DNA of 55,424 bases from Clostridia bacterium (GTDB taxonomy: Bacteria; Bacillota; Clostridia; TANB77; UBA1234), in assembly GCA_016291695.1 (NCBI GenBank), contig JAEEYG010000092.1, forward strand, positions 1 to 55,424. Reading direction: 5' to 3'. The translations under genes were made by a program, and so were the position numbers. The notes under the pieces are model-generated. The model saw only the letters and a list, made by a program, of their open reading frames with translations. It had not been told where the DNA came from and did not search any database. Below are positions 1-41,170 of this stretch, in pieces; the stretch's first letter is position 1, and every line of letters begins with the position of its first letter.

Positions 1-1752
1 GAAACTGGAGTTAGACTAAGATTTTTGTCAGCACTATCTAGACATTCCGATAAGCCTTGGAGCTTAGATGATGTTGATAGAACAATTAATATTGCTAAAA
101 GTCCATTTTTAGTTGGTGTTGACTTTATGGGTCAAGAAACAACTGCTTCACTTGATTTAAGGGAAGAATTAGAGATGTTTACCAGGTATGCTTGTACTCA
201 AGATCCAAATTTTGTTATTAGAGTTCATGCAGGTGAAAACCCGATTTTTAAGACTAATGTTTATGATGCGTTAAAAATTATTCAAGATGCACATGATAAA
301 TTGGAAGCTGAATTAGGGCATCCTGTTCCAATGCCACAGATTAGAATTGGACATGGACTGTACGGCTTAGACATTACAAGTGATGGTGAATGGCATGATG
401 TTCCACCTAATGGTGTTTTTGATTTAATAAAGAAAACTGGAGCAATTATTGAATTCAATATGAGCTCTAATCTTGCATTAAATAATATAAACGATATTTC
501 CAATATTCCTATAAAGAGATATGTGGATGCTGGTATACCTGTAGTTATTGGTACTGATGGTCACGGAATGTATTCTACGATTTCAGAGCAAGAGGTTTTG
601 CTTGCTAGTGCAGCGGGACTTGAGCCTGAGGATTTTGAAATTATTAGGCAAACAGAGGAAAGAGTTATTTCAAACGCGCTTGAAAGAGAACAAGAACATC
701 CTAGAATAGAAGATGTACCTGCATTGTATGAAGGCTTAAGGTATTCAACTCCAGAAGGTGGAAAAAGATTCACGGATAAGGTTGAAGAAAAGATTATAGC
801 TAGACAGGCCAGTATTGCTCATGAATTGCAACATAAAATAGCTTATACCGAAGCTATTACTGATGAAGGACAAATACTTGAAGATATTGAAGGAAAAGTT
901 CCTATACTAATTACTGGTGCATCCAAGAAATCTTGGCCGAATATTACACCCGACGATCAATTAAACATTGCAGTTGCTATGCAACTTTTAGCTGATACTT
1001 TAAATCCTGAGACTTCTTATGTTGTTACCGGTGGAACTAATTATGGTGCTGAGCGAACAATGCATGAAGCAGTACATAGGAGAAATCAAGAAGCGGAGTC
1101 AAAGCTACTTGTATTAGGAGCCTTTTCAAAGCTTATGTTACTAGGAACATTTACTATGGAAGCTGCACTTGAGGGTGAAGAGGGAATAGAAAAAGACACA
1201 ATTACTCATGCTATTGTTTTAAGATCAGAAGTTACTAAAAAGAAAGCAAAAACATGGAAAGACTTGCCAGATACGCAGTTAGACTTTGTTATAAAACGTG
1301 ATGGTCATATGATAGCAATAGGAGGAGGCTCTATTGTTAGTGATATGATACAAAGAGCTCATAATTTAGGCGTTGATATGCATTTGATGGATGGGCCTGA
1401 AGGAGCATCTACTGACAAGAGTAAAGCCTTAAGAGGAAATGATTACTCGTTTGTAACTCCTGAAGATTTGATAAGAAGACTATATAGTAGAAATCCGGCA
1501 TTATTTTTACCAGACTTTACTCTTGAAAAACTAGATGAATATCTAGCAAGGGCTAGAGAACAAGTTGGAAGCACAGAAATTCCTAATAATCCAGCAAACT
1601 TTGGCTTGGGTGCTATTTCAGAAATTGATAAATTAGTAACTGCAATCTTAAGAAACACTGGAAAAGAAAAGCTTGAGGGTGAAATTGCATCTGAATCAAA
1701 AGATGTTGATGATCCTGAAGTTAAACCCGAAGGGAGCGAGGTGACTGAATAA
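1..1752 (+). CDS. Adenosine/AMP-deaminase-like domain fused to a LOG/SLOG-like Rossmannoid domain (5' end cut by the window edge)
   Basis: Frame 1 is open from nt 1, with no stop before the TTG at 25, so the gene starts upstream of the window. The N-half has deaminase signature residues in canonical order: GVDFMGQE, VHAGE (nt 223-237), IGHG (nt 346-357), EFNMSSN and GTDGHG (nt 550-567). The N-terminal HxH metal motif would lie off-window. The C-half has Gly-rich Rossmannoid motifs VVTGGTNYGAERTM (nt 1021-1062) and IAIGGGSIVSDM (nt 1312-1347). The stop overlaps the next start (TAATG, 1750-1754). Confidence 0.6.
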   Translation, partial: ETGVRLRFLSALSRHSDKPWSLDDVDRTINIAKSPFLVGVDFMGQETTASLDLREELEMFTRYACTQDPNFVIRVHAGENPIFKTNVYDALKIIQDAHDKLEAELGHPVPMPQIRIGHGLYGLDITSDGEWHDVPPNGVFDLIKKTGAIIEFNMSSNLALNNINDISNIPIKRYVDAGIPVVIGTDGHGMYSTISEQEVLLASAAGLEPEDFEIIRQTEERVISNALEREQEHPRIEDVPALYEGLRYSTPEGGKRFTDKVEEKIIARQASIAHELQHKIAYTEAITDEGQILEDIEGKVPILITGASKKSWPNITPDDQLNIAVAMQLLADTLNPETSYVVTGGTNYGAERTMHEAVHRRNQEAESKLLVLGAFSKLMLLGTFTMEAALEGEEGIEKDTITHAIVLRSEVTKKKAKTWKDLPDTQLDFVIKRDGHMIAIGGGSIVSDMIQRAHNLGVDMHLMDGPEGASTDKSKALRGNDYSFVTPEDLIRRLYSRNPALFLPDFTLEKLDEYLARAREQVGSTEIPNNPANFGLGAISEIDKLVTAILRNTGKEKLEGEIASESKDVDDPEVKPEGSEVTE

Positions 1753-2198
1753 TGACGTTAGAATACAGACAATCTTTAACAGAGTTAGATAAAGTATTAT
1801 CTTATATGGATGAAGATAATATAAAAAAAGTTCCTAATAAGATTCTTGATTTTATTAAGAGGAATATGGATAAAAACTATTCCCCAAATATTGACAGAAA
1901 CATTCCTGTATATAAGCAACCGCTAAAAAAAGATACTAGAGTATTATTATCGTTATTATACAGACATTTCTGGTGTAGTAGCGAGAAAAAGGAAAGATTA
2001 TTAGCTGAAGACAAGGAAGAGTTGGATAAGTATTTTTCAGAGATTCAAAGACGTAGTACTTTTAATGCTTCAACTACTGATTCAAATAGTATTAACGAGG
2101 CTGTGACTGAGGAATGTAAAGAAATTGTAACGGTTGAAAAAATGAACTTCTTTAAAAGGATTCTTGATAGAATTATTAAATTCTTCAAGAGAAAATAA
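1752..2198 (+). CDS. Small partner protein, paralog A of a three-member family in this window
   Basis: Its ATG overlaps the upstream stop by 1 nt (translational coupling). It gives a gap-free alignment of about 30% identity to 40883..41170 and 3067..3561, with the pattern VL..(M/L)D....(K/R)(V/L)P..(I/V).(D/E)(F/Y)(I/L).(R/K)N ... P(N/D)I ... P(L/I).(K/R)(D/E)(T/A) ... F(W/F)C...(K/E)(E/K). It ends in a basic amphipathic tail, FFKRILDRIIKFFKRK. Confidence 0.75.
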   Translation: MTLEYRQSLTELDKVLSYMDEDNIKKVPNKILDFIKRNMDKNYSPNIDRNIPVYKQPLKKDTRVLLSLLYRHFWCSSEKKERLLAEDKEELDKYFSEIQRRSTFNASTTDSNSINEAVTEECKEIVTVEKMNFFKRILDRIIKFFKRK

Positions 2199-2210
2199 TT
2201 AAATGATTAT

Positions 2211-2241
2211 AAAAGAGCTTCCTATACTGAAGCTCTTTTTG
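2211..2241. terminator. Bidirectional rho-independent terminator between convergent genes
   Basis: The stem is agagcttc (2214-2221) / gaagctct (2229-2236), flanked by an A-run and a T-run. Confidence 0.7.
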
Positions 2242-2246
2242 ACTCT

Positions 2247-2882
2247 TTAATAATTTCTTGGACCAAATATTTTTGTTCCTATTCTTACATAAGAACTATT
2301 TTCTTGAACAGCTATTTTATAATCGTTACTCATACCCATAGAAAGTATTTCTAAATTATATTTATCTTTAAGATGGGCCATTTCATTAAAGTATTTTCTG
2401 TTTTCTTCTGGATTATCAGTTTTTGGAGCAACGCACATTAATCCTTTGACTTTAATATTAGGTAATTTACTTATACTATTTATTGCGCTATCTAATTCAT
2501 TTACATGAAAGCCATATTTTGTAGGTTCATCAGCGATATTGACTTCTAATAATGTGTTACTAATTATTCCTTTCTTATTTGCTTCTTTATCTATAGTTTC
2601 TGCTAGTTTAACCGAATCTATGGAATGAATAAGTGATACTTTACCAATAATATCTTTTACTTTATTTGTCTGCAAATGTCCTATTAGGTGCCAGTTAATA
2701 TCACTAGGTAACTTATCTATTTTGCTGAGTAACTCTTGAACTTTGTTTTCTCCAAAGTTTTTTACTCCGGCATCATATGCTTCTTTCATTTTTTCAATTG
2801 ATTGCGTTTTAGAAACAGCTATTAATTCAGCATTACTATCGTTTAAGTCATTATAAATACTATTGATATTTTCCTTTATCAT
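2247..2882 (-). CDS. yggS: YggS-family pyridoxal-phosphate homeostasis protein
   Basis: 211 aa with the hallmarks VSKTQSIE, FGENKVQE and HLIGHLQTNK, and a TIM-barrel alanine-racemase N-domain-like length. Confidence 0.85.
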   Translation of the reverse strand: MIKENINSIYNDLNDSNAELIAVSKTQSIEKMKEAYDAGVKNFGENKVQELLSKIDKLPSDINWHLIGHLQTNKVKDIIGKVSLIHSIDSVKLAETIDKEANKKGIISNTLLEVNIADEPTKYGFHVNELDSAINSISKLPNIKVKGLMCVAPKTDNPEENRKYFNEMAHLKDKYNLEILSMGMSNDYKIAVQENSSYVRIGTKIFGPRNY

Positions 2883-3066
2883 TAGTCATCACCAATTAGA
2901 TTATAGCATAAAAATCTTGTATTATTTGATATTTATTAAGTTTTTGTTACTAATTTGAACATTTTTAGAAGATTCTTGGCATCTATGATAAAATATGTAT
3001 GGTATTTGTAGGTATTAAGTACAGACGATTTTGAAATTGTTTGTTTCTTATAAAGAGGTGATTAGT

Positions 3067-3561
3067 TTGTTATCTATAGGAAAGGCAATGTATCAGGTCT
3101 GGCAAATTGTTGATAATTTGCCAGAAGATGAAAAAGCCTTTATATCTCAAGACTTAATAGATGAGATAAAAGGCACTATGGAAGTTGATGATAGTTTCAC
3201 AATTGATTTTGACATTCCGTTGGAAAAACAAAAATTAGATGATAAAGCCTGGAATATGCTTAAAAAAGTCCTTAAAAATGCTAAGAAGAATGGATATGGT
3301 AAAACTGATTCTGTAAATGTTGAAGCTCCTACCGAAGAAAAGGATATTAACCAGTTCAGGCTAGAGAATATAGAATTAAACCAAAAGCTTTCGCAATCAA
3401 AGAAGCTTATCATAGATATTAGTAAGTCTGTTGAAAAACTTCAAAATGAAAACAAAAAGCTAATGGAAGATAACGCTGAATTATTGTGTTGCATAAATAG
3501 AGTTCCAAAACTATTTAGAAAAATGTTTTTTAAAGATGCAACGACAAAGCTAATAAAGTAA
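3067..3561 (+). CDS. Small partner-family protein, paralog B, with a C-terminal coiled-coil extension
   Basis: The track ORF starts at 3031. The RBS aaagaggtg (3052-3060) favours TTG 3067, with ATG 3088 as an alternative. The segment ISQDLIDEIKGTMEVDDSFTIDFDIPLEKQKLDDKAWNML aligns gap-free with paralog A's VPNKILDFIKRNMDKNYSPNIDRNIPVYKQPLKKDTRVLL (13/40 identical by eye). The C-half is heptad-like (NQKLSQSKKLIIDISKSVEKLQNENKKLMEDNAELL) and ends in a basic tail, KLFRKMFFK. Confidence 0.65.
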   Translation: MLSIGKAMYQVWQIVDNLPEDEKAFISQDLIDEIKGTMEVDDSFTIDFDIPLEKQKLDDKAWNMLKKVLKNAKKNGYGKTDSVNVEAPTEEKDINQFRLENIELNQKLSQSKKLIIDISKSVEKLQNENKKLMEDNAELLCCINRVPKLFRKMFFKDATTKLIK

Positions 3562-3582
3562 ATGTGATATTAGGAGGTTTTT

Positions 3583-4683
3583 ATGAAAAAGTTGGGGTTT
3601 GGCTTAATGAGATTACCACGTCTTGATGGTTCAGATGAAATTGATATTGAACAAACGAAAAAAATGGTTGATTTGTTTTTAGATGCAGGTTTTACATATT
3701 TTGATACTGCTTTTGTATATAATGGAAGCGAAGAAGCAATTAAAAAAGCACTTGTTGAAAGACATCCTAGAGAATCTTATACTCTTGCTTCTAAAAATGC
3801 TGCCTGGGCTGGATGTAAATCAAGAGAAGATGCTATTAAGCAATTTGAAACTTCATTGGAAAGAACTGGAGCCGGATACTTTGATTACTATTTGCTTCAT
3901 AACTTAGGTAATGAAAGAACTAAGTATTTTGATGATTGGGATTTATGGAGATGGGCATTTGAAATGAAAGAACAGGGGAAGATAAAGCATGTTGGTTTTT
4001 CTTTCCATTCAACTCCAGAAGAGTTAGAGGAGATATTAACAAAGCATCCTGAAGCAGAATTTGTTCAACTTCAGATTAATTATGCTGATTGGGAAAGTGC
4101 AACTATTCAATCTAGAAAATGTTATGAGGTTGCTAGAAAACATGGAAAGCCTATAGTTGTTATGGAACCAGTAAAAGGTGGTATGCTTGCTACACCGCCT
4201 AAAACAGTCGAGAGTGTCCTTAAAGATGCTAATCCTAATTTATCCAATGCTTCTTGGGCTGTAAAGTATGCTGCAGACTTAGATGGAGTTATGGTTGTAT
4301 TATCTGGAATGAGTAATATTGAACAAATGCAGGATAACATTTCATATATGAAAGATTTTGAAGGCTTAAATGATAATGAAAGAAATGTTATTAAAAAAGC
4401 TCAAGAAGAATTAGATAAAATTCCCCTTATTCCATGCACATCATGCAACTATTGTGCAAAGGTATGCCCTATGAATATCGCCATATCAGCTTCTTTTAGT
4501 GCTATGAATATGTTAACTTTATATAATAATACAGAGGCTGCTAGAAGAGAAGTAGGATGGGATCTTCAAAAGGGAAAAGCTAGTGCTTCTGAATGCATCA
4601 AATGTGGAGCTTGTGAAGGTGTTTGTCCACAACATATACAAATCAGAGATGAGTTAGAAAATGTTGCTAAGCATTTGTGCTAG
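3583..4683 (+). CDS. Aldo/keto reductase with a C-terminal 4Fe-4S dicluster domain
   Basis: It has a typical AKR N-terminus (GFGLMRLP, FDTAFVYNGSEE) plus two ferredoxin Cys motifs, CTSCNYCAKVCP and CIKCGACEGVCP. The RBS is aggagg. Confidence 0.85.
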   Translation: MKKLGFGLMRLPRLDGSDEIDIEQTKKMVDLFLDAGFTYFDTAFVYNGSEEAIKKALVERHPRESYTLASKNAAWAGCKSREDAIKQFETSLERTGAGYFDYYLLHNLGNERTKYFDDWDLWRWAFEMKEQGKIKHVGFSFHSTPEELEEILTKHPEAEFVQLQINYADWESATIQSRKCYEVARKHGKPIVVMEPVKGGMLATPPKTVESVLKDANPNLSNASWAVKYAADLDGVMVVLSGMSNIEQMQDNISYMKDFEGLNDNERNVIKKAQEELDKIPLIPCTSCNYCAKVCPMNIAISASFSAMNMLTLYNNTEAARREVGWDLQKGKASASECIKCGACEGVCPQHIQIRDELENVAKHLC

Positions 4684-4836
4684 AGCTGGATTATTTTACA
4701 TAAATTATCCTTACTTGAATTTATGTTGAATAAAAATGTGCTTTTTATGTGAATTACAACAAATAATTGTTGCTCATATTGTATTAATATAGTATTATAA
4801 AAAGCAGTTGAATAATTACTCGAAAGGAGATTTTTT

Positions 4837-5643
4837 ATGAAAAATTTATTTAAGGTTTTAGCATTAGTTATGGTAATCTGCGTAGCAGTATTCGCCTTAA
4901 CTGGATGTGGAGAAGAAAAGAATGAGGGTGGTTCAACACCAGCTAATAATACAAATGTATCAAGCAACTCAATTGTTGGATATTGGAAGAATGATAGCTA
5001 TGGCGCTGACTTTATCTATACATTTAATGATGACGGAACAGGTAATTACTATGTAGCAGGTGCTGATATGCCATTTACTTATAAGACAAATGGTGATCAA
5101 TTATCTATTTTATTTGATGGTGATGATGCTTCTTTTGATACTACTTATGAAGTAAAAGGTAATGTTCTTAATGTTGCTGACTCTTTAGGTGAAGACACAT
5201 TATATGACAGAATAGATGCTAGTGAGCTTCCAAAGCCTGCTCAAATTGGAACAGCAGGGAGCAGCATGCCTCTTAAAGATAATCCAGATGAAGCTAGATC
5301 TCAGGTTGAATATTGTTTCCAAAACTGGATTGATAAAGCTTATGGTGATAAAATTACAGAGTCTAATGTTCATGTAGAAAAGATATATAGCTCAGAGGAT
5401 GAACAAAATGACGAAGCACTTAAAGCATTAAATCTTAATGAACAAGAAGTTGCTTTTGAAGTTAGATATGAACTTAAACCTGCTGAAGGCGTTGATGTAA
5501 ACGAACTTACAGCTGCAACTGGAGAGTATGACGAAGAAACTGGTTGGGTTATTGAGAAGTATAACTGCGGAGTTATTAGACCAACTGTAAATTCTGAAGA
5601 TCCTTATGAAGTTGATACTGAAAGATTAGGAACAGGCTGGTAA
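4837..5643 (+). CDS. Lipoprotein with a lipocalin-like N-domain
   Basis: It has a signal peptide with the lipobox LTGC, preceded by the RBS aaaggag. A Gly/Asp-rich beta segment is present (IVGYWKNDS...FNDDGTGNYY). Confidence 0.7.
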   Translation: MKNLFKVLALVMVICVAVFALTGCGEEKNEGGSTPANNTNVSSNSIVGYWKNDSYGADFIYTFNDDGTGNYYVAGADMPFTYKTNGDQLSILFDGDDASFDTTYEVKGNVLNVADSLGEDTLYDRIDASELPKPAQIGTAGSSMPLKDNPDEARSQVEYCFQNWIDKAYGDKITESNVHVEKIYSSEDEQNDEALKALNLNEQEVAFEVRYELKPAEGVDVNELTAATGEYDEETGWVIEKYNCGVIRPTVNSEDPYEVDTERLGTGW

Positions 5644-5663
5644 TAATATAATATTGCATGCTT

Positions 5664-5695
5664 AAAAGGGAAAGCTCAGCTTTCCCTTTATCATT
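5664..5695 (+). terminator. Rho-independent terminator
   Basis: The stem is gggaaagc (5668-5675) / gctttccc (5679-5686), followed by a T-rich tract. Confidence 0.7.
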
Positions 5696-5732
5696 ATTAT
5701 TTGATTTTATAATTTTTATGGGAGAACTATAA

Positions 5733-7208
5733 ATGAAGTCGAGAAATATGTTGAAAGGCCTTATTGCTGGTGTTATTTTATTTGTCATATGTTCCTTGGT
5801 CATAATTCTTAATGGCAATTCTTATACAATTAAAATGAAAAACACCTATGGCGCTGTAAGTTCTGAAGATGTAAATATTTCAATTGAACATGAAAATATT
5901 GCAAAACTATCTAATATAGTAGTAGATAAAGATACGGTATCTATTTCTTTTGATGCTATCTCTAAGGGGAAAACATATTTTAGTGTAATAATATCTGGCG
6001 AAGAAGTTGGAAGTCTTTATTGTATATTTGTACACAACTTTAACATTATTACACTAAATGAGTTTTTAGGTGACTGCTCTTATAGTTGGATTATACCGTT
6101 GTCATTAACAATCCTTATGGGATACATTTCTTTCTTATTAATTAAGTCTTTTTTGCAAAATTATAAAAAAGATATGTATCAATACAAAAACATTGCCTAT
6201 ATAGGTTTGATTATTATTATGGTAGCTTCAACAATTAGTCAGGCTTCACATATAGCTAATTATGGTGGGCTTATTCATACCGTTTATGACATATTAAAAA
6301 CTTTTTCATTAGCTATATTAATTTTTCCTTTGGCACTTGTTGTATCTTTTCTCGTCATTATTAGTAATGTGGTACTTATTAAGAAAGAAGGATTTAATGT
6401 AAAGAATACACTGGGTATTATTTTAGGAATTTCTCTTTGCTTCTTTACAGTACTTCCTGAGATTATGTACCTTCTATTATATGATTCTCCAATAATTGAC
6501 GTTCATAATTTAAATGGATACGGTGTATATGTATATGAGTTTATCGAAGCGATTATATATATTGGCGTTTCATATACGGAATGCATACTGCTAGGAACTA
6601 TTATTTTATCTATAAAGGTTGGTAGGCATATTCCAAGCTTTGATAAAGATGCGATTGTAATTTTGGGTTGTCAAGTAAAAAAAGATGGAAGTCTTACAAA
6701 TCTTTTAAAAGGTAGAGTAAATAGAGCAATTGAATTTGGAAAATTGCAAAAGGATAATACTGGAAAAGAATTATTGTATATTCCATCTGGTGGAAAGGGA
6801 AATGATGAAGTTGTTTCCGAAGCACAAGCTATGAAAAACTATCTTATTTCACAAGGGATTGATGAAAACCGTATTCTTATGGAGGATAACTCTAAAAATA
6901 CTGCTGAGAATATAGAGTTTTCAAATAAGCTAATCTGTGAAAGAACTAGTAATCCTAAAGTTGCGTTCTCAACTACTAATTATCATGTTTTTAGAGCTGG
7001 TAACTTAGCCTCAACTCTAGGATATAAATATGAAGGAATAGGAGCTAAGACAAAAAATTATTTTTGGATTAATGCTTTTATAAGAGAATTTGTAGCAACA
7101 ATGATTAATGAAAAGAAAAAGCATATGTTAGTAACTTTTTGCATCATAGTCGCAACAATTGTTTTAACAATACTAGAGTATTTGAATAATAATATTCAAT
7201 TTATATAA
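5733..7208 (+). CDS. Polytopic membrane protein with a C-terminal YdcF/ElyC (DUF218) domain
   Basis: It has several hydrophobic helices followed by DUF218-like motifs: IVILGCQVKKDGS, LKGRVNRAIEF, IPSGGKG...SEAQAM..YL and NSKNTAENI. Confidence 0.75.
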   Translation: MKSRNMLKGLIAGVILFVICSLVIILNGNSYTIKMKNTYGAVSSEDVNISIEHENIAKLSNIVVDKDTVSISFDAISKGKTYFSVIISGEEVGSLYCIFVHNFNIITLNEFLGDCSYSWIIPLSLTILMGYISFLLIKSFLQNYKKDMYQYKNIAYIGLIIIMVASTISQASHIANYGGLIHTVYDILKTFSLAILIFPLALVVSFLVIISNVVLIKKEGFNVKNTLGIILGISLCFFTVLPEIMYLLLYDSPIIDVHNLNGYGVYVYEFIEAIIYIGVSYTECILLGTIILSIKVGRHIPSFDKDAIVILGCQVKKDGSLTNLLKGRVNRAIEFGKLQKDNTGKELLYIPSGGKGNDEVVSEAQAMKNYLISQGIDENRILMEDNSKNTAENIEFSNKLICERTSNPKVAFSTTNYHVFRAGNLASTLGYKYEGIGAKTKNYFWINAFIREFVATMINEKKKHMLVTFCIIVATIVLTILEYLNNNIQFI

Positions 7209-24037: not shown

Positions 24038-26023
24038 TTGAAAAAGTCAAATAGCATTAAGTCAAAATCAACAAACAAACAAGTTAATAATTCAAAGAAA
24101 AAGGTTCAAGTTAAAAAGGCTGTTTCAAAAAAGCCAGTAAAGAATACAAAAAAAGTGACAAAACAAGTTTCTAGAATAAAAGTGCAACCTAAAAAGGTCA
24201 GCAAAAAAGCTACTAATTCAAAATCTAGAGTACCAGTTAAGAAGGTAAAAGAAGCTCCTAAAAAGACGAATTCAAAACTAAATAAAAATGTTAAGACTTC
24301 TTCTAAAAATCAAAAACTTAGCAAAAAAGTAACTAATGCTAAGTCTAAGGTTAATGTTAAGAAGTCTACTTCTAAAGCCGTAAAACCTATTAAAATAGAG
24401 AAGATATCAAAGAAGATGATTAAACCAGCATCTAAAAAACAGGTTATAAGCAAACAAACTAAAAATGTGCAACCAGTTAAAAAACAAAGTCTTCAAAAAT
24501 CTAAGGGAAAGGTTGCACCGAAAAATTCTATACCAATAAAGAAGAAGGTTGAAAAAAGTACTGTGGATAAAAAATCTAAAAAAATAGAGAAGGTGTCTCA
24601 AAAACCTGTTAAGAAAACGCCAGACACTAAGAAAGTTAAAGTTGAGAAAAAATCAACTACTGTAAAAGAAGAAAAGAAAGTAACGACTAAAAAGTCAAAT
24701 GAGATAAACAAAAAGAGTTCTCAAATTGCAAATGAGAAGAATTTGAAAAAGAAAGCATTAGAAGAAAAGCAAGAAAGCATTGATCTAGAATCAATTAATC
24801 AACAAGATAACGAAAATAAGTTACCTAACAAAGAAGTACAACCTAGTCAAAAGAATACTAAAGGCAAAAAAGAAAAATCATTAATCGATGCCGATCAAAT
24901 TTCATTTTTGAAAGGCGAAGATAGTAACGCTACAGTTGAAAACATTATTCAGGCATTTCAGAAAAAAGGCACTATTACTTTTAAAGAACTTGTAGAAACT
25001 CTTGAAAAATTACATCTAGACGTTGAAACAATCGAAAAAGTATATGAAGCACTAGAACAAGCCAATGTTGACGTTATTGAAGATATTGACGATATTAATG
25101 ATGATACATTAGAACCAGATATTGATGAATTAGACAAAATTGAAGAAGAGATTAATCTAGACACTGATTCTCAAGATTTAGATTTAATGGATCAAGTTAA
25201 TATCGAAGACCCAGTTAGACTATATCTAAAAGAAATTGGTAAGATTCCACTTCTTACAGCAGAAGAAGAGATTGAGTGTGCAAAAGCAATGCTTGCTGGT
25301 GATGAGAAAGCTAGAAAGAAGCTATCTGAATCAAACTTAAGATTAGTTGTAAGTATTGCAAAAAAATATGTTGGTAGAGGAATGTTATTCCTTGATTTAA
25401 TCCAAGAAGGAAACCTAGGATTAATCAAAGCAGTAGAAAAATTTGACTATAGAAAAGGATTTAAGTTCTCAACATATGCTACATGGTGGATAAGACAAGC
25501 TATTACAAGAGCTATAGCTGACCAAGCAAGAACAATTAGAATTCCTGTTCACATGGTTGAAACAATTAATAAACTAATTAGAACACAAAGACATTTACTT
25601 CAGTCTTTAGGTAGGGAACCAACTATTGAAGAAGTTGCTGAAGAGATGGAAATGCCAGTAGAAAGAGTTATGGAGATTAAGAAGGTTTCTCAAGAGCCTG
25701 TTTCTCTTGAAACTCCTATCGGTGAGGAAGAAGATAGTCACTTAGGCGATTTTATTCCTGATGATGATGCTCCATCACCATCTGAACTTGCAGCGTATAC
25801 ATTATTAAAAGAACAACTAAACGAGATTATCGAAACTCTTACTCCTAGAGAGGCAAAAGTATTAAGACTAAGATTTGGTTTAGATGATGGAAAAGCTCGT
25901 ACACTTGAAGAAGTTGGTAAGGAATTTAACGTTACAAGAGAGCGTATTCGTCAGATTGAAGCTAAAGCACTTCGTAAATTAAGACATCCAAGTAGAAGTA
26001 AGAAACTTAAGGATTACATGTAA
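24038..26023 (+). CDS. rpoD: Primary sigma factor (sigma-70/SigA) with a Lys-rich N-terminal extension of about 240 aa
   Basis: The TTG start follows aaggagg. Regions 1.2-4 are canonical ([60 protein letters not shown]). The N-terminus is K/V/S/T low-complexity sequence with internal repeats. Confidence 0.95.
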
Positions 26024-33997: not shown

Positions 33998-34008
33998 CGC
34001 GAAATCTA

Positions 34009-34037: not shown

Positions 34038-34084
34038 TGTGATAAACTCTAGTTGTTGTATTTATGAAGAGAGGATGAAAAAAT

Positions 34085-34718
34085 TTGGAAATAGATAGAT
34101 TAGTACCAGCAATAGAAGCGCTACTTTTCGTTAGCCGGAAGGCCTGTGACTAAAAAGACACTAGCCGAAATACTTGAAAATACTGAAGAAGAGATTGAAG
34201 AAGCGGCTCAAAAGCTAGAAAACAGGCTAACAGATGATAACTCTGGTATTCAGCTAATTAGAATAAATGATGGGTATGAGCTTTCTACAAAAGAAGCATA
34301 CTACGATATGGCAGTTAAATTATTAGATAATAGGCCTAAACCATCATTATCTCAAGCAGCAATGGAAACGCTAGCTATTATTGCTTATAACCAAAGGATT
34401 ACTAGAGCGGAGATTGAGCGAATTAGAGGTGTTTCTTCAGACAGTGCTATAAATAGGCTGTTAGAATACAATCTAATAGAAGAAGCGGGAAGAATAGACG
34501 CACCTGGAAGACCCATGACTTTTAAGACTTCAGACGAATTTTTAAGGCTATTTGGATATGAATCTATAAATGATATGCCGGAATTGCCTCAATTAAAAGA
34601 AGATGATGGTCAGATAGAGCTAAAATTAGATGAAACCACTACTGAAAGCGAAGAACCTAACATAGAAGAACCACAAAAAACAAATGAAGAATTTACTCCA
34701 GAAAATGTAGAAAATTAG
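34085..34718 (+). pseudogene. scpB: Segregation and condensation protein B with an apparent 1-nt insertion at about 34136
   Basis: TTG 34085 opens LEIDRLVPAIEALLFVS, the canonical ScpB N-terminus, and then hits a stop. Dropping c34136 joins it to GRPVTKKTLAEIL..., the frame of the track ORF at 34146..34718. The rest is typical ScpB (LSQAAMETLAIIAYNQRITRAEIERIRGV). Confidence 0.8.
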
Positions 34719-34729
34719 CATTTTTTTGT

Positions 34730-34758
34730 TTGACAAAGGCTATAAAACGATATATAAT
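34730..34758 (+). promoter_or_regulatory. rpmF promoter
   Basis: TTGACA (34730-34735), 17 nt, then TATAAT (34753-34758). Confidence 0.6.
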
Positions 34759-34822
34759 TTGGTCGTTGACTTTAAAGGGATTATTTTTAATTTATATAGA
34801 TATTCTAAGGAGGGAGATATAA

Positions 34823-35011
34823 ATGGCACAACCAAAAAGAAGATGGTCTAAAGCAAGAACCGGTTTAAGAAGATCTACATGGAAAGTAGAAGCTCCAGGT
34901 TATGTAGAATGTCCACATTGTCACGAGCCTGTTTTACCACATAGAGTTTGTAAGAATTGCGGATACTATGACGGAAAGCAAGTTATAAATAAAGAAGAAG
35001 CAGCTAAATAA
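34823..35011 (+). CDS. rpmF: 50S ribosomal protein L32 (zinc-ribbon form)
   Basis: MAQPKRRWSKARTGLRR... with CPHC...CKNC; 62 aa. Confidence 0.95.
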   Translation: MAQPKRRWSKARTGLRRSTWKVEAPGYVECPHCHEPVLPHRVCKNCGYYDGKQVINKEEAAK

Positions 35012-35025
35012 GGCTGCTTTTTTCT
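34998..35025 (+). terminator. rpmF terminator overlapping the stop codon
   Basis: The sequence is aagcagc-taaataag-gctgctttttt. Confidence 0.65.
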
Positions 35026-35046
35026 ATATTCAAAAGATATAAGGAG

Positions 35047-36360
35047 GTGATGGCCTTGAAAAAGCACTTGATTAAAGAAATAGTAAAAGGAAGTATTGCT
35101 GAGGAATTAGATATAAAAGCTGGTCGCTATTTAATTCTAGTAAATGATATTGAAATAAAGGATATTTTGGACTATAAATACCAAATGTTTGATTCTTTCG
35201 TTACTATTGTTATTCAAGATGAAGATGGTAATGAAGATGAATACGAAATTGAAAAAGAGGAAAATGAAGATATTGGCTTAATCTTTGAAGAAGAGCTAAT
35301 GGACACACCACGTAATTGTGCTAACAAATGCATTTTTTGCTTTATGGATCAATTGCCTCCAAATGTCAGAGACACACTAGTATTTAAAGATGATGATTTT
35401 AGACTATCATTTATGACTGGTAATTACGTAACACTTACAAATTCTGGATATAAAGACCTAGAAAGAATTGTAGGATATCACTTAAGCCCAATTAATGTTT
35501 CTATTCATGCTACAGATAAAGACGTAAGAGCTATGATGCTTAACAACAAAAATGCTGGTAAAATAATGGAATATATCGAATTTTTGACTAAAAATGGCAT
35601 TTACATCAATGCTCAAATCGTACTATGTCCTGAAATTAATGACGGCAAAATACTAGACAAAACAATTGAAGACCTCGCTAAATTTTTTCCTTATGTTCAG
35701 TGTATTGCTATAGTACCAGTTGGTTTAACAAAATTTAGAAAAGGGCTATTCCCATTAAAAAGATATAATAAAACAAGTGCTAGAAAAGTTATTAATCAGG
35801 TGGAAGGTTGGCAAAAAATCCTTAAAGACAAGTATGGTTCTAGAATAGTGTATGTTGCTGATGAGTTATATATTCTAGCAGAAAAAGAAATTCCACCTTA
35901 TGAAACGTACGAAGATTTTATGCAATTAGAAGACGGTATTGGAATGCTAGCTAAATTTAGAAAAGAATTTGAGGATAAGCTAAAACGTTTAAAACCTAAA
36001 AAGGTAAAAAGACAGGTGACTGTCGCAACGGGGAAATGTGCATATAAGTTTTTAGAATCGCTTTCAAAGAAGTTAGAGGACAAGTTTTCAGGCCTTAAAA
36101 TCAATGTTGTACCAATAGAAAACACATTTTTTGGTAAAAACATCACTGTTTCAGGGTTAATTACTGGAAATGACCTCATAAACCAGTTAAAAACAGCTGA
36201 TTTAGGTGATTTTCTCATATTAAACTATAATTGCCTAAGAGAGGATGAGCCTGTATTTTTGGATGATGTACACCTAGATGACGTAAAAAAGGCTCTAAAG
36301 GTCAAAATTAGGCTTTGTAATGGCACAGGAGGAGACTATATTACGAATATTATTAAATAA
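35047..36360 (+). CDS. DUF512-type radical SAM protein with an N-terminal PDZ-like domain
   Basis: It has the CxxxCxxC motif CANKCIFC and a length and architecture typical of this family. The start is ambiguous (GTG 35047, ATG 35050 or TTG 35056) behind aaggagg. Confidence 0.8.
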   Translation: MMALKKHLIKEIVKGSIAEELDIKAGRYLILVNDIEIKDILDYKYQMFDSFVTIVIQDEDGNEDEYEIEKEENEDIGLIFEEELMDTPRNCANKCIFCFMDQLPPNVRDTLVFKDDDFRLSFMTGNYVTLTNSGYKDLERIVGYHLSPINVSIHATDKDVRAMMLNNKNAGKIMEYIEFLTKNGIYINAQIVLCPEINDGKILDKTIEDLAKFFPYVQCIAIVPVGLTKFRKGLFPLKRYNKTSARKVINQVEGWQKILKDKYGSRIVYVADELYILAEKEIPPYETYEDFMQLEDGIGMLAKFRKEFEDKLKRLKPKKVKRQVTVATGKCAYKFLESLSKKLEDKFSGLKINVVPIENTFFGKNITVSGLITGNDLINQLKTADLGDFLILNYNCLREDEPVFLDDVHLDDVKKALKVKIRLCNGTGGDYITNIIK

Positions 36361-36398
36361 AACCAATCTTTACCATATCGGCTCATGATAAACAATTA

Positions 36399-36427
36399 TT
36401 GACATTTGCTAGTTTACATATTATAAT
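36399..36427 (+). promoter_or_regulatory. Consensus promoter of cassette E
   Basis: TTGACA (36399-36404), 17 nt, then TATAAT (36422-36427). Confidence 0.6.
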
Positions 36428-36460
36428 TTCTTATGCAAACTAAATTATAGGAGGGATTCC

Positions 36461-36712
36461 ATGGTAGTTCTTGCTGTGGTTCTTGGGCTTCTTCTTCTGG
36501 CATGCATCTACATCCGATTCTTCTACAACCCGTTTCACAAAATGGTGATTGACAACATCCGGCCGTCCAGAAGGCAAGTACGACAAGTAGCATCCTCAGA
36601 TGAACCTATCTGCTATCACACCATCATGGACTGCGAATCCTGTGGAGCCAGCTACAAATGTAAAAGGATATTTGGAGCAGGCTATATTAGGACAAAAAAT
36701 GACAATCCTTAA
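36461..36712 (+). CDS. Small membrane protein with a Cys-rich tail, high-GC cassette E
   Basis: 83 aa with the RBS aggaggg, an N-terminal TM (VVLAVVLGLLLLACIYI) and then CYH...CESCG...C. The first 60 nt are 47% G+C by hand count, against 17% for the first 60 nt of the next native gene. Confidence 0.55.
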   Translation: MVVLAVVLGLLLLACIYIRFFYNPFHKMVIDNIRPSRRQVRQVASSDEPICYHTIMDCESCGASYKCKRIFGAGYIRTKNDNP

Positions 36713-36736
36713 ACATATCAAATAATTTGATGATAT

Positions 36737-36775
36737 CAAAACAGCCACTGCACCTATGCGGTGGCTGTTTTAATT
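36737..36775 (+). terminator. Terminator of cassette E
   Basis: The sequence is cagccactgc-acctat-gcggtggctgtttt. Confidence 0.8.
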
Positions 36776-36858
36776 TTATTAGTTGTAAATTTATGTTTCC
36801 TGATTTATAATTAATATAGCAATTTTTGAAATTAAATCTATTTGGATGAGGGATTTAT

Positions 36859-37236
36859 ATGAAAAACTATCTAAGCAAAAATTGGAAAAAAATCTTATAT
36901 TTTGTAACAATTATAATTATTGTATTTAACACGGTTAGAACTGTTATGACACCAAATACCATTATAGATGACTACTACAAATACGGCCCAGAATACGTTC
37001 GTGTTAATGATTCAAATGGGAATTCAAATATTAATTCTGAGGAAGTTAAAGAAGGAGTAAATAATGGTATTGGAACCATTACTGATGGTATGACAAACGT
37101 TTTGGTTGACAATACAGGTATCCCACCTGAACTTGCAAGAGGAATTATCGTTTTTACATCCCTCTTTTTAGTAATACTAATACTAAGTAGTGTATTATCT
37201 GGAGGTAGCTCAGCTCAGCCGGCTAAGAAAAAATAA
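36859..37236 (+). CDS. Small two-TM membrane protein, unknown function
   Basis: 125 aa with hydrophobic segments at both ends, native AT-rich composition, and a position directly upstream of pta. Confidence 0.5.
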   Translation: MKNYLSKNWKKILYFVTIIIIVFNTVRTVMTPNTIIDDYYKYGPEYVRVNDSNGNSNINSEEVKEGVNNGIGTITDGMTNVLVDNTGIPPELARGIIVFTSLFLVILILSSVLSGGSSAQPAKKK

Positions 37237-37253
37237 TAATAAAGGAGTTTATT

Positions 37254-38246
37254 ATGGATTTCATTAAAAGTATCAAAGAAAAAGCAAAGAATAGTATAAA
37301 AACTATAGTTCTACCTGAGTCTTATGATATTAGAGTTTTAGAAGCTGCAAGAAAAGTAACTGATGAGGGCTTTGCAAAAGTTGTTTTGATAGGAAATAGA
37401 GAAGAAATCAATAATATTTCAAAGGGAATAAGATTAGATGATATAGAAATAATTGACCCTAAAAATTCAGAAAAACTTGATTTCTACACAAATACACTAT
37501 ACGAACTTCGTAAAGAAAAAGGCATGACTTATGAAAAAGCAGTAGAAACACTTAAGAATAATATATATTTTGGCACAATGATGATTAAATGTGGAGATGC
37601 TGATGGACTAGTTGCTGGAAGCATTTGTTCAACTTCTGATACATTAAGACCTTCTTTGCAAATAATAAAGACTGCACCTAATGTAAAACTAGTATCATCT
37701 TTCTTTGTAATAGATGTTCCAAATTGCGAATATGGGGATAATGGTCTATTTTTATTTTCTGATTGCGGTTTAAACGTTAACCCTAATGCAGAGGAACTTT
37801 CAGAAATAGCTATTTCTACCGCTAATACTTGGAAATCTTTATTTGGAACAGAGCCAAGAATTGCAATGCTTTCATATTCAACTTTAGGAAGTGCTCCGCA
37901 GGTTGAAGGAATGAATGTTAAAGTTCAGGAAGCAACTAAACTAGTTAGAGAAAAAAGACCTGATTTATTAGTTGAAGGAGAGGTTCAACTTGATGCTGCA
38001 ATAGTTCCTTCAGTTGCTTCTAAAAAAGCTCCAGAAAGTAGTGTTGCAGGAAAAGCAAATGTTTTAATCTTCCCTGATATTAACGCTGGAAATATTGGTT
38101 ACAAATTAACTCAAAGACTTGCTAAAGCAGAAGCTTATGGACCTATTACTCAAGGTATAGCGAGACCAGTCAATGACTTATCTAGAGGATGTTCTGCAGA
38201 AGATATTGTTGGTGTAATAGCAATTACTGCTTTTCAAGCTCAATAA
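37254..38246 (+). CDS. pta: Phosphate acetyltransferase
   Basis: 330 aa; motifs are IVLPES.D.RVLEAA and SRGCSAEDIV..IAITA. The RBS is aaggag. Confidence 0.93.
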   Translation: MDFIKSIKEKAKNSIKTIVLPESYDIRVLEAARKVTDEGFAKVVLIGNREEINNISKGIRLDDIEIIDPKNSEKLDFYTNTLYELRKEKGMTYEKAVETLKNNIYFGTMMIKCGDADGLVAGSICSTSDTLRPSLQIIKTAPNVKLVSSFFVIDVPNCEYGDNGLFLFSDCGLNVNPNAEELSEIAISTANTWKSLFGTEPRIAMLSYSTLGSAPQVEGMNVKVQEATKLVREKRPDLLVEGEVQLDAAIVPSVASKKAPESSVAGKANVLIFPDINAGNIGYKLTQRLAKAEAYGPITQGIARPVNDLSRGCSAEDIVGVIAITAFQAQ

Positions 38247-38255
38247 TTTTGATTT

Positions 38256-38283
38256 AAAGCCCTATTTATAGGGCTTTTTTTTA
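38256..38283 (+). terminator. Strong terminator directly after pta
   Basis: The stem is agcccta (38258-38264) / tagggct (38269-38275), followed by a T8 run. Confidence 0.85.
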
Positions 38284-38367
38284 ATGTAATCTTAATCTTA
38301 GATTAATACCTTTGAAACACATAATTGATATAATTTTAATAGATTATTATTATTATTAGGTGATAAT

Positions 38368-40872
38368 ATGAATTTTGAAGAACTTAAGGGAAAAATTCAA
38401 GAAGATGTAACGGCGCTTGAACAAGCTACTAATCGTCTTGAATTATTAATACAATTTTTATCTGAAAAATATAATGATTCAGCTTTACATTATTTAAATA
38501 TAGAATTTTTTATTCAAGAAACAGCTTCTATTAGAAATGAATTGTTTGTTCTAGATGACTTTTGTCAGCTTCATTCATTGGCGAAACCATTCAATCTCCA
38601 GGATTATTCTGGTCTAGATTTACCTTCGGATCCTATTCTTCTATCAGATGGCAGCGAACAAACAAATACTAGCACACAGAATGTTGGATATACTGATGAA
38701 GAAATAAGATTACTCTCGCCACTTAGCAATTATCTTTATAGCTTATTGTCAGACATCCGCGAACACCAATATCAATTGTCTAATTCTTTTACTTCATTGA
38801 CTTATCCCATCTTATCTAGTCTAGGGCAAACTGTCCAAGATTATCCGGAAAATATGAAGTTAACCGACTTTATTAATGAGTCTGGTGTTGATGTAAATGC
38901 TCTTGATTTTCAATTGTTGAGTTCTGACGAAGTTAACAAGCTATATGGTTTTATTACTATAAGTTATAATCCTGAAGATCAAGATTTATCTTCACCAGAA
39001 ACACCAAAGAAAACAGATGTTATACAAGAGGATATTATTCGTCCGTTTGGAAGGAATATATCACAAATGACTGCAGACTATACTAAACTCTGGGATGAAA
39101 GAAGAATACTAATTGACCTAATTCAAAATCATTTACCATTGGATTCTGGTGGTAAAAATACAATATTACAATTTCATGTAGTTGAAGGAACACATAAAGA
39201 AGGCTGGTATGACATATCTGAAATTGGAGGATTTACAGATCAAGAAATAGATGGATTTCAGATTATTGATGATGGAGTTGGATATCAAAAAGAATATCTT
39301 TACTATTATGCTTCAAATAAGAGTGAAGAAAGTGCTGGTAAATTTGGTGAAGGATTAAAAGTTGCTCTTGGAGCGGCGCTTGCAAGAGGATGCAAGGTTG
39401 AAGTTCAGTCGCACTATGAGCCAGAAGCGGGCTCACAAAATGAACCTCTTGATTGGAGTGCTACAGAAGAATTAGCAGAATCTGGTGCAATAAGACCAAT
39501 TATAGTTGATTATAGAGAGGGAGCTGATATTAAAAAAGGAAGTCTCACTCGAGTAATGAACATAAATCCTGCGTTTGTTAGACAGCTTAGAAATATTAGA
39601 GAAAGTGTATTGTATTTTCACCCTTCAAAACCAGTTGCAGAAACTATGTATGGTTCAATTTTAGAATTAGAGCCAGCTGATATAATGCAAGCATCAGGGA
39701 GAGTATATGTAAAGGGGCTTTTATGGCCTGACAATAAAGATACAATCTTTTCTTATAATTTTACTCATTTAGATGTTAAAAACAGAGATAGACTATGCCT
39801 TGAAAGATGGTCTGAATTAATACCTGCAATTGAATCCGTCCTTTCCGATTTGTCCGATAAAAAAGTAATAAAACAAATATTGCAAACAATTAGCAATTAT
39901 AGTTCAACCGAAAGAGAATATGCAGAATTAAGTGCTGTTATATTTCATGATTATAACATTTATCATCCTGATATTTTGCAAGCTTGGTTAGAATCATTTA
40001 AAGAAGTATTTGGTGAAAGGGCATGCGTTATTGCCAGAAACTCATCCAACCCAGCAGCATGTGACTATGCGAGACATATGGGGCTTATACCAATTGTTTT
40101 ACCAAATTCGTGGGCACTTGCTTTAAGTAGAGTTAGGGGCAAAGATGGTGAAAAAATCTTATCTTACGAAGAAGAACATGATTCTGCAATTCGTAATGCA
40201 GTACCTGTTCCAGCAAATGAGATAACTGAAGATGAGAAAATTGTAGTTGATTGGCTACTACACGATATAGTTACCTTGTTACCACATGAAAATGGCAAAC
40301 CAAGGATATCCAATATCGAAATATATGATTATCCTAAAGATTACTTTGGTTCAAAGGCTGCTGGCTTTGCAAAATTAGGAGATACTATACATATTTGCAG
40401 AGATACATTTACAAATATTTTTGATTTACTCCATGTTGTTTTCCACGAATCTGGTCATGCTTATACGGGTGCAGGTGACCCTGATAAAGAATTTAGAGAT
40501 TTCTTATCAAGAGTTCTTGCAATTCAAGCTGCAAATAATGTTCTTGGCCCTGAAAGGTTAAGTCAAATAAGAAGTCTAAGTCGATTTGCAACAAGACCAG
40601 AACCAAGTGCAATGGAAGAATTCTTTTATGATGCATTTAAACCTTTTCAAGATCCATATACTTTTCAGTTCTTATCTAAAACTGATTCTACACCATCTGA
40701 ATTAGGACCTTTTGCAAAATTGTTAAGTGAAATGGGCTATGGAAGTAAAATGGATGAGCTAAAAAGAGATATTGATTCTTTCATTTCTCGTCTCGAAGGT
40801 AAAGGTTATAATCTCGAACAAATCACGAGAGTATTAGAAATGCGTAAAAGAGAAGTAAATCCTGAAGAATGA
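38368..40872 (+). CDS. GHKL (Bergerat-fold) ATPase fused to a C-terminal HExxH zincin metallopeptidase-like domain, with an unassigned N-terminal region of about 240 aa
   Basis: The N-box-like motif is RILIDLIQNHLPLD (from nt 39103, N254), G1 is IIDDGVGY (nt 39262-39285), G2 is GKFGEGLK (nt 39337-39360) and the zincin motif is VVFHESGHAYTG (HESGH = nt 40444-40458). Composition is native AT-rich. Confidence 0.7.
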   Translation: MNFEELKGKIQEDVTALEQATNRLELLIQFLSEKYNDSALHYLNIEFFIQETASIRNELFVLDDFCQLHSLAKPFNLQDYSGLDLPSDPILLSDGSEQTNTSTQNVGYTDEEIRLLSPLSNYLYSLLSDIREHQYQLSNSFTSLTYPILSSLGQTVQDYPENMKLTDFINESGVDVNALDFQLLSSDEVNKLYGFITISYNPEDQDLSSPETPKKTDVIQEDIIRPFGRNISQMTADYTKLWDERRILIDLIQNHLPLDSGGKNTILQFHVVEGTHKEGWYDISEIGGFTDQEIDGFQIIDDGVGYQKEYLYYYASNKSEESAGKFGEGLKVALGAALARGCKVEVQSHYEPEAGSQNEPLDWSATEELAESGAIRPIIVDYREGADIKKGSLTRVMNINPAFVRQLRNIRESVLYFHPSKPVAETMYGSILELEPADIMQASGRVYVKGLLWPDNKDTIFSYNFTHLDVKNRDRLCLERWSELIPAIESVLSDLSDKKVIKQILQTISNYSSTEREYAELSAVIFHDYNIYHPDILQAWLESFKEVFGERACVIARNSSNPAACDYARHMGLIPIVLPNSWALALSRVRGKDGEKILSYEEEHDSAIRNAVPVPANEITEDEKIVVDWLLHDIVTLLPHENGKPRISNIEIYDYPKDYFGSKAAGFAKLGDTIHICRDTFTNIFDLLHVVFHESGHAYTGAGDPDKEFRDFLSRVLAIQAANNVLGPERLSQIRSLSRFATRPEPSAMEEFFYDAFKPFQDPYTFQFLSKTDSTPSELGPFAKLLSEMGYGSKMDELKRDIDSFISRLEGKGYNLEQITRVLEMRKREVNPEE

Positions 40873-40882
40873 GGTGAAAAAT

Positions 40883-41170
40883 ATGAATGATATAAAAGTT
40901 AATTCGGAAGTATTAGGTGTTTTAAAGATTCTAGACAAAGAAACTTTACATAGACTACCTGATGACGTCTATGAATACTTAGTAAAGAATTCAAAAGAAG
41001 ACTTAATACCAGACATTCCATACGGAACACCTCTAAATGAAATGCCAATTTCAAGAGAAGCACAGGCATTTGTTACGATGTTAAATCTGGCTTTCTTTTG
41101 TAAGGATGGTAAGGAAAAAGAGACAATTATGAAAAGAATAATACAAAACGAAAAGAAGTATAATAGCTAA
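40883..41170 (+). CDS. Small partner protein, paralog C
   Basis: The start is 11 nt after the upstream stop (TGA 40870-40872), behind the RBS tgaggtga; GTG 40874 is also possible. It aligns gap-free with paralog A (see findings). Confidence 0.75.
   Translation: MNDIKVNSEVLGVLKILDKETLHRLPDDVYEYLVKNSKEDLIPDIPYGTPLNEMPISREAQAFVTMLNLAFFCKDGKEKETIMKRIIQNEKKYNS

Follow-up and report, generated by a model that had tools for sequence, protein, structure and literature searches.

Small proteins encoded behind unrelated large enzymes: a widespread family with variable gene partners in gut Clostridia

The stretch of DNA analysed here, referred to as the window, is the 55,424-nucleotide contig JAEEYG010000092.1 of a Clostridia bacterium (assembly GCA_016291695.1), and the subject of this work is a family of small proteins to which three of its genes, A, B and C, were assigned with differing certainty. 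All three open reading frames (ORFs) lie on the forward strand, where a preliminary description of the sequence had placed them. Gene A (1752-2198) encodes 148 amino acids (aa) comprising an N-terminal domain (N-domain, residues 1-95), a degenerate copy of the linker motif that characterises the family and an amphipathic basic tail, MNFFKRILDRIIKFFKRK; its ATG at 1752 overlaps the stop codon of an adenosine-deaminase gene by one base (TAATG), and the ribosome-binding site (RBS) GGGAGCGAGGTG lies upstream. Gene C (40883-41170) encodes 95 aa corresponding to the N-domain only, without the amphipathic tail. The ATG at 40883, whose RBS, GAGGTG, overlaps the TGA stop codon (40870-40872) of an 834-aa gene, is likely the true start of C, and P0008, an orthologue of C called by NCBI, begins at the same residue; further orthologues are P0097 and a gene in locus L131. 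Gene B (3067-3561, 164 aa) most likely begins at the TTG at 3067, which is preceded by the RBS AGAGGTGA. As initially noted, B stands alone: no partner gene is closely linked to it on the upstream side, where a promoter-like site is found just ahead of it, and the gene for an aldo/keto reductase begins 21 nucleotides (nt) downstream. In 80 orthologous loci the reductase never has a B-like or family gene beside it, and B was therefore rejected as a conserved partner of this enzyme. No close relatives of B were found in the species genomes, and B would be an orphan copy.

The degree of relatedness among the three proteins is uneven. A and C are certainly homologues, since BLASTP aligns them without gaps over 71 aa (E=1e-9, 20% identity, 59% positives). 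The similarity between A and B reaches E=4e-4 over 56 aa, and that between B and C is not significant by BLASTP. The gap-free alignment of about 85 aa originally claimed for all three is thus confirmed as ungapped for A and C, at a shorter length, and is not significant for B and C. When family hidden Markov models (HMMs; alignments A2/A3) were run on every window ORF of at least 40 aa, A (~1e-52), C (~1e-27) and B (2e-4 to 5e-4, and up to 6e-4 over all HMM searches) ranked at the top, with the next ORF at 0.1-0.4, and hhalign of a 35-sequence family profile against B gave a probability of 75% and E=2.5e-5. On the basis of these BLASTP, HMM and hhalign scores A and C are solid members, whereas B is probably a member, divergent and marginal. 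The C-terminal regions also differ. In A the basic tail (net charge +6) shows marked amphipathicity (hydrophobic moment 0.78); that of B is basic (+5) but not amphipathic (moment 0.08), so that only half of the earlier statement, which gave both proteins basic amphipathic tails, applies to B. The linker motif is degenerate in A (within 2040-2080) and absent from B, and C terminates exactly at its start (…EKKYNS; 41150-41170).

The gene that precedes A (positions 1 to 1752, forward strand) has an open reading frame from the first base of the window and encodes the C-terminal 583 aa of a protein of about 815-830 aa, the 5' end of the gene being lost at the window edge. Its designation as a deaminase is well founded, as PF00962 (A_deaminase) matches the fragment with 36.8 bits (cut-off 27) and the full-length homologues, of 814-830 aa, with 82-87 bits; its similarity in PADLOC-DB 2.0 is to the CARF_ADA deaminase domain, with 3e-4 for the fragment in the window and 1e-13 when a homologue of full length is used. 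Toward the C-terminus a Rossmann-like domain, possibly of the SLOG type, is followed by a charged tail, and the motifs GGTNxGxE and GGG are visible in the sequence. The SLOG label that had been attached to the protein is unconfirmed: domain-only searches of Pfam and PDB with the window protein detected neither SLOG nor LSDAT, and the LSDAT matches in the full-length homologues (E 0.02-0.05) stay below the cut-off.

The 834-aa protein encoded ahead of C (38368-40872, forward strand) combines a GHKL-type ATPase module, recognised by the motifs DLIQNH, DDGVGY and GKFGEGLK, with a C-terminal zincin-like HExxH motif (HESGH). The window region alone matches HATPase_c_3 at E=0.02. A homologue in locus L082 (E=1e-65; 1,062 aa) contains two such modules, one of which exceeds the HATPase_c_3 cut-off (29.8 bits against 25), and carries HEYAH at the place equivalent to HESGH; the name GHKL-zincin given to the protein at the outset is, on these motifs and this homologue, reasonable. 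The L082 relative surfaced through the loci of the small-protein family, and a peptide-pattern scan revealed no close relatives of the 834-aa protein. No domain common to the deaminase and the GHKL-zincin protein was detected by BLASTP; a shared domain is ruled out on this basis, and the two large enzymes are unrelated, as had been described.

The GHKL-zincin gene and C occupy a defined insertion. Ten related species have pta and ackA side by side, whereas in the window (37254-42466) and in L131, from a sister species, they are separated by these two genes, which form a 2.9-kb insert in the window; in another related species (L205) an unrelated 224-aa gene occupies the same site. Between the window and L131, identity is 42% and 60% for the two proteins of the cassette, compared with about 80% for pta and the methyltransferase and 97.5% for ackA. 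A terminator-like hairpin (38256-38277, forward strand; 9-bp stem and T-run) marks the 5' edge of the cassette immediately behind pta, and a promoter-like site (38325-38353, forward strand; TTGATA-17-TATTAT, 10 of 12 matches) precedes the 834-aa gene, with another before ackA; all three are consensus matches only. The joint insertion of the pair was taken as a sign that the cassette moves as a unit.

Beyond the window, an exhaustive profile search recovered 3,673 clusters at 50% identity with E<=1e-3, 1,732 of them at E<=1e-10, whereas word-indexed searches recovered few relatives. Among the top 149 hits (A itself excluded) 133 are 138-166 aa long. A typical member consists of the N-domain of about 95 aa, the linker motif EKYNPDNIFKN, a variable spacer and, at the C-terminus, a basic amphipathic helix with the pattern '…EYKE..W..KI..KI..FKK'. 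No part of the protein is better conserved than the linker motif (at least 90% throughout the family); in addition, conserved positions of the N-domain include E11, P28, Y43, T62, L66 and C75, together with EKYNP..F. The C-terminal helix has a median hydrophobic moment of 0.51, against 0.20 for the linker used as control, and a net charge of +3. Variants of this architecture exist: C-type members (C, P0097, P0038) end at the start of the linker motif and have no tail at all, P0012-P0014 (251-281 aa) carry two N-domains in tandem, and P0018 (718 aa) is a natural fusion of a VWA domain with two N-domain copies. Metagenome-assembled genomes (MAGs) of uncultured Clostridia/Bacillota from human and animal guts account for almost all the hosts that the records name, and the members are cytoplasmic proteins of about 150 aa from AT-rich, mostly gut- or animal-associated Clostridia/Bacillota.

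Comparisons with databases and with known folds yielded no relatives. Searches of A, B and C against Pfam, NCBIfam, PHROGs and PADLOC gave a best E of 0.0026, with none at the curated cut-offs of Pfam and NCBIfam. Ten longer family members had nothing in Pfam save one weak, sub-threshold VWA match on P0018, and a PDB sequence search with the family profile returned chance matches only. AlphaFold2, supplied with a 53-sequence alignment, predicts residues 1-95 of A with a pLDDT (predicted local distance difference test) of 95.8 and a pTM (predicted template modelling score) of 0.83, as a fold of five helices with a long conserved loop. Foldseek found no neighbour of the N-domain model in the PDB (best E=5.8, TM score at most 0.39) and nothing for the full-length A model in the PDB or BFVD. 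The family had been called uncharacterised, and this is the case with respect to Pfam, NCBIfam, PHROGs, PADLOC and the PDB, by sequence and by fold. A, B and C gave no Pfam match to DUF4065, the PanA domain, at E<=1, no Pfam DNA-binding domain of the helix-turn-helix, ribbon-helix-helix, AbrB or similar type, which agrees with an N-domain model devoid of PDB matches, and no nuclease, transposase or DNA-binding signature. An origin in phages or plasmids was considered and rejected: a typical member had no tblastn match among INPHARED phages and PLSDB plasmids, and the motif scan gave one match in IMG/VR against 107 in the species genomes. The only IMG/VR viral contig with a match shows the usual arrangement, with a 385-aa protein carrying HELIH followed by the small gene.

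The strongly amphipathic, cationic tail could suggest that the small protein is a constant effector whose C-terminal helix, once released, damages or permeabilises the membrane, with the upstream proteins acting as its sensors or activators, in a two-gene system of the abortive-infection type. The variable partners indeed include sensor-like modules (leucine-rich repeats (LRR), a STAND-like winged helix and the possible SLOG domain), and the cassettes are accessory insertions, some on mobile elements. This explanation is nevertheless quite unlikely, as the tail is entirely missing in the C-type members, many partners look like effector enzymes themselves, and collections of phages, plasmids and viruses contain almost no members of the family, which lies outside recognised defence systems.

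The gene context of the family was tabulated in 107 loci from species-representative genomes, retrieved with a degenerate DNA pattern for EKYNPDNIFK, in which ORFs were called and searched with the HMMs; the sample is biased toward carriers of the linker motif, and the results of the ORF caller, although crude, agree with independent public gene calls. Of the 101 members with a scorable upstream neighbour in these loci and the window, 74 have a same-strand gene within 40 nt upstream, compared with 163 of 549 other genes of the same loci (odds ratio 6.5, p=3e-16). Overlaps of 1, 4, 8, 14, 17 and 35 nt with the upstream gene occur, and such a tight bicistronic arrangement is among the criteria for type II antitoxins. 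BLAST sorts the 91 upstream partners in tight linkage into 49 clusters, with lengths of 47 to 1,062 aa, so that at least 49 unrelated clusters of upstream partners are known across about 130 loci, and small proteins 57-80% identical to each other are found behind unrelated partners. In public gene calls the small gene overlaps or abuts the 814-830-aa deaminase and a 376-aa RelA_SpoT protein, the latter itself preceded by an HD_4 hydrolase, as well as a 177-aa fragment, a 50-aa remnant and a 259-aa protein without assigned function; an abundant lineage differs in that its neighbour, a 602-aa protein likewise of unknown function, is encoded downstream of the small gene. The idea of a constant small module paired with variable enzymes, put forward from the window alone, is thus sustained on a far larger sample.

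A minority of members departs from this arrangement. Orphans exist (B, L024 and L061), and two members lie within 8 kb of each other in 9 motif-scan loci, with three in the 55-kb window. Such copies, and the extreme heterogeneity of the partners, might be expected if there were no specific partnership, the small gene either regulating the transcription or translation of its operon or being a selfish or neutral mobile ORF with a tendency to land at gene 3' ends. We consider this very unlikely, because a whole two-gene unit was inserted at pta-ackA and kept as a pair in the sister species, the N-domain is also found fused to a VWA protein, and the small proteins bear no signature of a nuclease, transposase or DNA-binding protein.

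Only about one third of the partner representatives contain any Pfam domain. Those recognised include A_deaminase, RelA_SpoT, HATPase_c_3, HD, Amidoligase_2, HAD, Metallophos, LRR_5, mTERF, AAA_13 and a STAND-type winged helix, among others, while HopA1-like (8e-8) and Sel1-repeat proteins are among the tight downstream partners. HExxH motifs are enriched, being present in 7 of 45 representatives compared with 10 of 555 background genes. Partners of this type occur in L043, L082, L091, L098, L100, L106, L291 and the window (38368-40872) and are otherwise unrelated; one of the seven motifs (HEAVH, in the deaminase) lies outside a typical zincin context. No peptidase match was obtained in Pfam for the L082, L106, L291 and window proteins individually, nor in a pooled scan of the 47 partner representatives. 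In PADLOC the same 47 representatives gave a single clear match, the deaminase, and four weak ones (E>=1.6e-4) that are probably spurious. The label of polymorphic conflict systems proposed in the preliminary description remains circumstantial, since only the deaminase clearly matches PADLOC and some partners are repeat or HAD proteins rather than obvious toxins.

This partner set has a direct bearing on the possibility that the small protein is a hyperpromiscuous neutraliser of the antitoxin or immunity type, which would bind a toxic upstream effector, one fold serving for many toxins as in the Panacea systems (PMC8832971), which provide a precedent. The partner chemistries (RelA/SpoT, adenosine deaminase, HExxH, HD and amidoligase) resemble those of toxins or effectors, and toxin-immunity pairs typically have overlapping genes with the toxin first and its neutraliser second. 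However, the LRR, mTERF and HAD proteins upstream and the Sel1 proteins downstream are not obvious toxins, the clear match to PADLOC is confined to the deaminase, the closest PDB relatives of the RelA_SpoT partner are RelP/RelQ-type synthetases, that is, housekeeping small alarmone synthetases, and no DNA-binding domain is detectable in the small protein. Moreover, a linker motif and tail that are independent of the partner fit a constant target better than the inhibition of the active sites of 49 proteins.

The same partner repertoire could also point to a chaperone for the secretion or delivery of effectors by Sec-independent routes, by analogy with the class I chaperones of type III secretion systems (T3SS), the Eag and DUF4123 proteins of type VI systems (T6SS) and the Lap proteins of type VII systems (T7SS). 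Such a chaperone would recognise a conserved stretch of every effector and pass the protein on to an export machine. The LRR_5/BspA, Sel1, mTERF, HopA1-like, zincin, deaminase and RelA/SpoT proteins would make an effector-like set, each partner has its own small helical protein beside it, and C-terminal tails are common to unrelated partners. In addition, the partner N-termini, read by eye over 45 residues for one protein per cluster, look cytoplasmic, with no obvious signal peptide. On the other hand, no LXG, RHS, PAAR or similar trafficking domain is found among the Pfam matches of the 47 partner representatives, no genes of a secretion apparatus were noticed in the gene tables, in which no dedicated screen was made, and orphans and decayed partners beside intact small genes would be unexpected for a pure chaperone. 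Altogether, a role in secretion appears unlikely.

The cassettes are accessory insertions that are sometimes mobile. In L001-L004 an integrative mobilisable element encodes, in this order, a deaminase, a small protein, an HD_4 hydrolase, a RelA_SpoT synthetase and a second small protein (L001 5573-10718), along with a recombinase, TnpV, MobC and a relaxase. The possible SLOG domain of the deaminase, placed next to an alarmone synthetase and hydrolase, could belong to a nucleotide-signal circuit. The succession of HD_4 hydrolase, which is SAH-like, RelA_SpoT and small protein mirrors a faRel operon flanked by an SAH-type and a type II antitoxin (PMC11782079), in agreement with a neutralising function. 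The cassettes in L067, L097, L125 and L119 are also carried by integrative mobilisable elements, with integrase, relaxase or Xre-like genes flanking them. The partner gene is intact (382 aa) in L069, L092 and L119 and split into ORFs of 258 and 108 aa in L067, L097 and L125, and the small gene downstream is intact in all six. The notion that a tail and small gene are kept after loss of the enzyme was dropped, since the 108-aa ORFs are the 3' part of the split gene. At a common site after Amidohydro_1 and PSP1 genes, compared between L016-L019 and L020-L023, one lineage has genes of 433 and 259 aa of unknown function and the other only the 50-aa remnant (L016); the small gene follows in both, which indicates, from the gene arrangement, turnover of the cassette with retention of the small gene. 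Intact small genes behind decayed or split partners (L016, L067, L097, L125), the existence of orphan copies, the location of some cassettes on mobilisable elements and the faster divergence of the pta-ackA cassette relative to its flanks were all counted in favour of a neutraliser.

A further property of the partners concerns their C-termini, which are charged and, in subsets, alike despite unrelated bodies. Of nine BLAST matches between partner clusters, six lie at the extreme C-terminus. Over 861 pairs of unrelated partners, the mean tail score was 52 for the 27 pairs with the closest small proteins and 27 for the rest (p=5e-8), while an internal control segment showed no effect (23.4 against 22.7, p=0.26). 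The last 60 or so residues of the upstream protein thus track the subfamily of the small protein and the remainder does not. Co-variation of the tails, but not of the internal segment, suggests that the co-inherited unit is the partner tail together with the small gene, the rest of the partner being swapped. Such co-variation fits a docking peptide; it also fits plain linkage combined with the constraints of embedded RBSs and gene overlaps. A tail motif universal to the partners was sought and abandoned, as an HMM built from four similar tails matched nothing beyond its seeds, and for this reason tail sharing is claimed at the level of subgroups only.

Taking these data together, we tentatively favour, as the foremost of several readings none of which reaches even probability, a small protein that docks on partner tails as an adaptor or chaperone and bears an amphipathic tail of the membrane-binding type, because its most conserved features are independent of the partner. 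The small gene is usually co-transcribed and translationally coupled with an upstream gene that varies almost from locus to locus. The N-domain may dock on the C-terminal tail of the partner, so that one family could serve dozens of unrelated heads, and the linker motif and amphipathic helix may tie the complex to a constant component of the cell, of which the membrane is the likeliest candidate. The small protein would thereby localise, stabilise or restrain its co-encoded accessory enzyme. In the window, A would serve the adenosine deaminase and C the GHKL-zincin protein of the cassette between pta and ackA. The fusion of VWA and N-domains in P0018 was counted as a physical link in support of a partnership.

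Several observations weigh against an adaptor or chaperone. C has no amphipathic tail and that of B is not amphipathic, so that membrane targeting is not universal. No tail motif is common to all partners, the co-variation of the tails could reflect genetic linkage if recombination breakpoints fall within the 3' end of the upstream gene, and conservation of the tail is partly forced by the embedded RBS and the gene overlap. About one quarter of the members have no tight upstream partner, some of them preceding a large gene, and no constant cellular machine to which the small protein would connect was identified. A neutraliser is almost as likely as an adaptor or chaperone, and is likewise regarded as possible at well short of even probability. 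A broader and rather doubtful proposal is that the family constitutes a new cassette system of gut Clostridia, in which a docking domain of about 95 aa with a new fold would recognise a transferable C-terminal tail, and any head, be it a deaminase, an alarmone synthetase, a GHKL-zincin, an LRR protein or another, could be plugged into one regulatory or delivery pathway through recombination within the tail.

The family thus comprises thousands of clusters, found mostly in gut- or animal-associated Clostridia/Bacillota MAGs; it is unnamed, and for its confidently predicted fold the PDB offers no neighbour. Its presence assigns no fewer than 49 gene families, otherwise unrelated and mostly without annotation, to one functional context. 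If the small protein is a neutraliser, it would represent a second Panacea and point to many new families of toxins or effectors; if it is an adaptor, it would define a modular system in which enzymes are localised or delivered by tail docking, and a docking-cassette system, should it exist, would amount to a new general mechanism by which accessory or conflict functions are assembled and diversified. In either case, accessory or conflict cassettes of little-studied gut Firmicutes could be located with the small protein as a marker, and the window offers two clean pairs, deaminase with A and GHKL-zincin with C. Elsewhere in the window, a gene at 24038-26023 (forward strand) encodes a primary sigma factor (RpoD/SigA-like), of which regions 2-4 were recognised by reading the translation rather than with a profile; its lysine-rich, low-complexity N-terminal extension of about 290 aa is unusually long and is visible in the composition profile as a strong AT-skew peak (0.30).

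Several known systems share part of this organisation. In polymorphic-toxin loci a small immunity gene lies downstream of a large, variable toxin gene, and orphan immunity genes occur. The family resembles them in that the small gene lies immediately downstream of the partner, often overlapping it, and in its orphan and tandem copies, multiple copies per region and fast divergence. However, immunity families change with the toxin domain, whereas here the small protein is constant and the partner changes; moreover, the 47 partner representatives have no recognisable trafficking or secretion domains. Effector-specific chaperones, such as ShcA for HopA1, the Eag and DUF4123 proteins of T6SS and Lap1/Lap2 of T7SS, are encoded beside their effector and bind a conserved segment of it. 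A small gene beside each variable partner is a feature in common with them, and one downstream partner has a HopA1 domain, but the small protein belongs to a different family and fold, and no secretion machinery is linked to it.

SecB itself is a mainly β-sheet tetramer. The all-helical fold predicted for the small protein, which has no SecB match in Pfam, sets it apart from the SecB-like chaperones of the toxin-antitoxin-chaperone (TAC) systems. In these systems a dedicated chaperone recognises a modular C-terminal extension of its client, known as ChAD (PMC5105189, PMC6377645). The partners of the family likewise have C-terminal tails that are common to unrelated proteins and co-vary with the small protein, which would bind them; TAC systems, unlike the pairs described here, consist of three genes that include a canonical toxin-antitoxin pair. 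A resemblance of another kind is seen in the faRel operon, a toxSAS system, where the L001-L004 element repeats the same order of HD_4 hydrolase, RelA_SpoT protein and family member, an arrangement absent from the window. The closest PDB relatives of the RelA_SpoT partner, at most a putative toxSAS, are of the RelP/RelQ type; the N-domain of the small protein has no PDB neighbour by fold and the family profile no PDB match by sequence, with no direct comparison made to ATfaRel-type antitoxins.

The closest parallel in overall design is Panacea, in which PanA (DUF4065) is a hyperpromiscuous antitoxin domain, a single domain neutralising many toxins (Kurata et al. 2022, PMC8832971; NetFlax network, PMC10440598). 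Both are small, widespread and fast-evolving domains, encoded in compact operons of two genes alongside any of dozens of unrelated partner domains. The family differs from Panacea in having no match to DUF4065 or any other Pfam domain and an all-helical predicted fold without a PDB neighbour, in its conserved linker motif and amphipathic tail and in partners that include repeat proteins; toxicity of the partners and neutralisation by the small proteins are putative. A cassette system based on a docking domain and a transferable tail, if confirmed, would be distinct from toxin-antitoxin, polymorphic-toxin and known defence architectures. The family itself is new and unnamed, and a promiscuous partner domain, as a kind of system, is already known.

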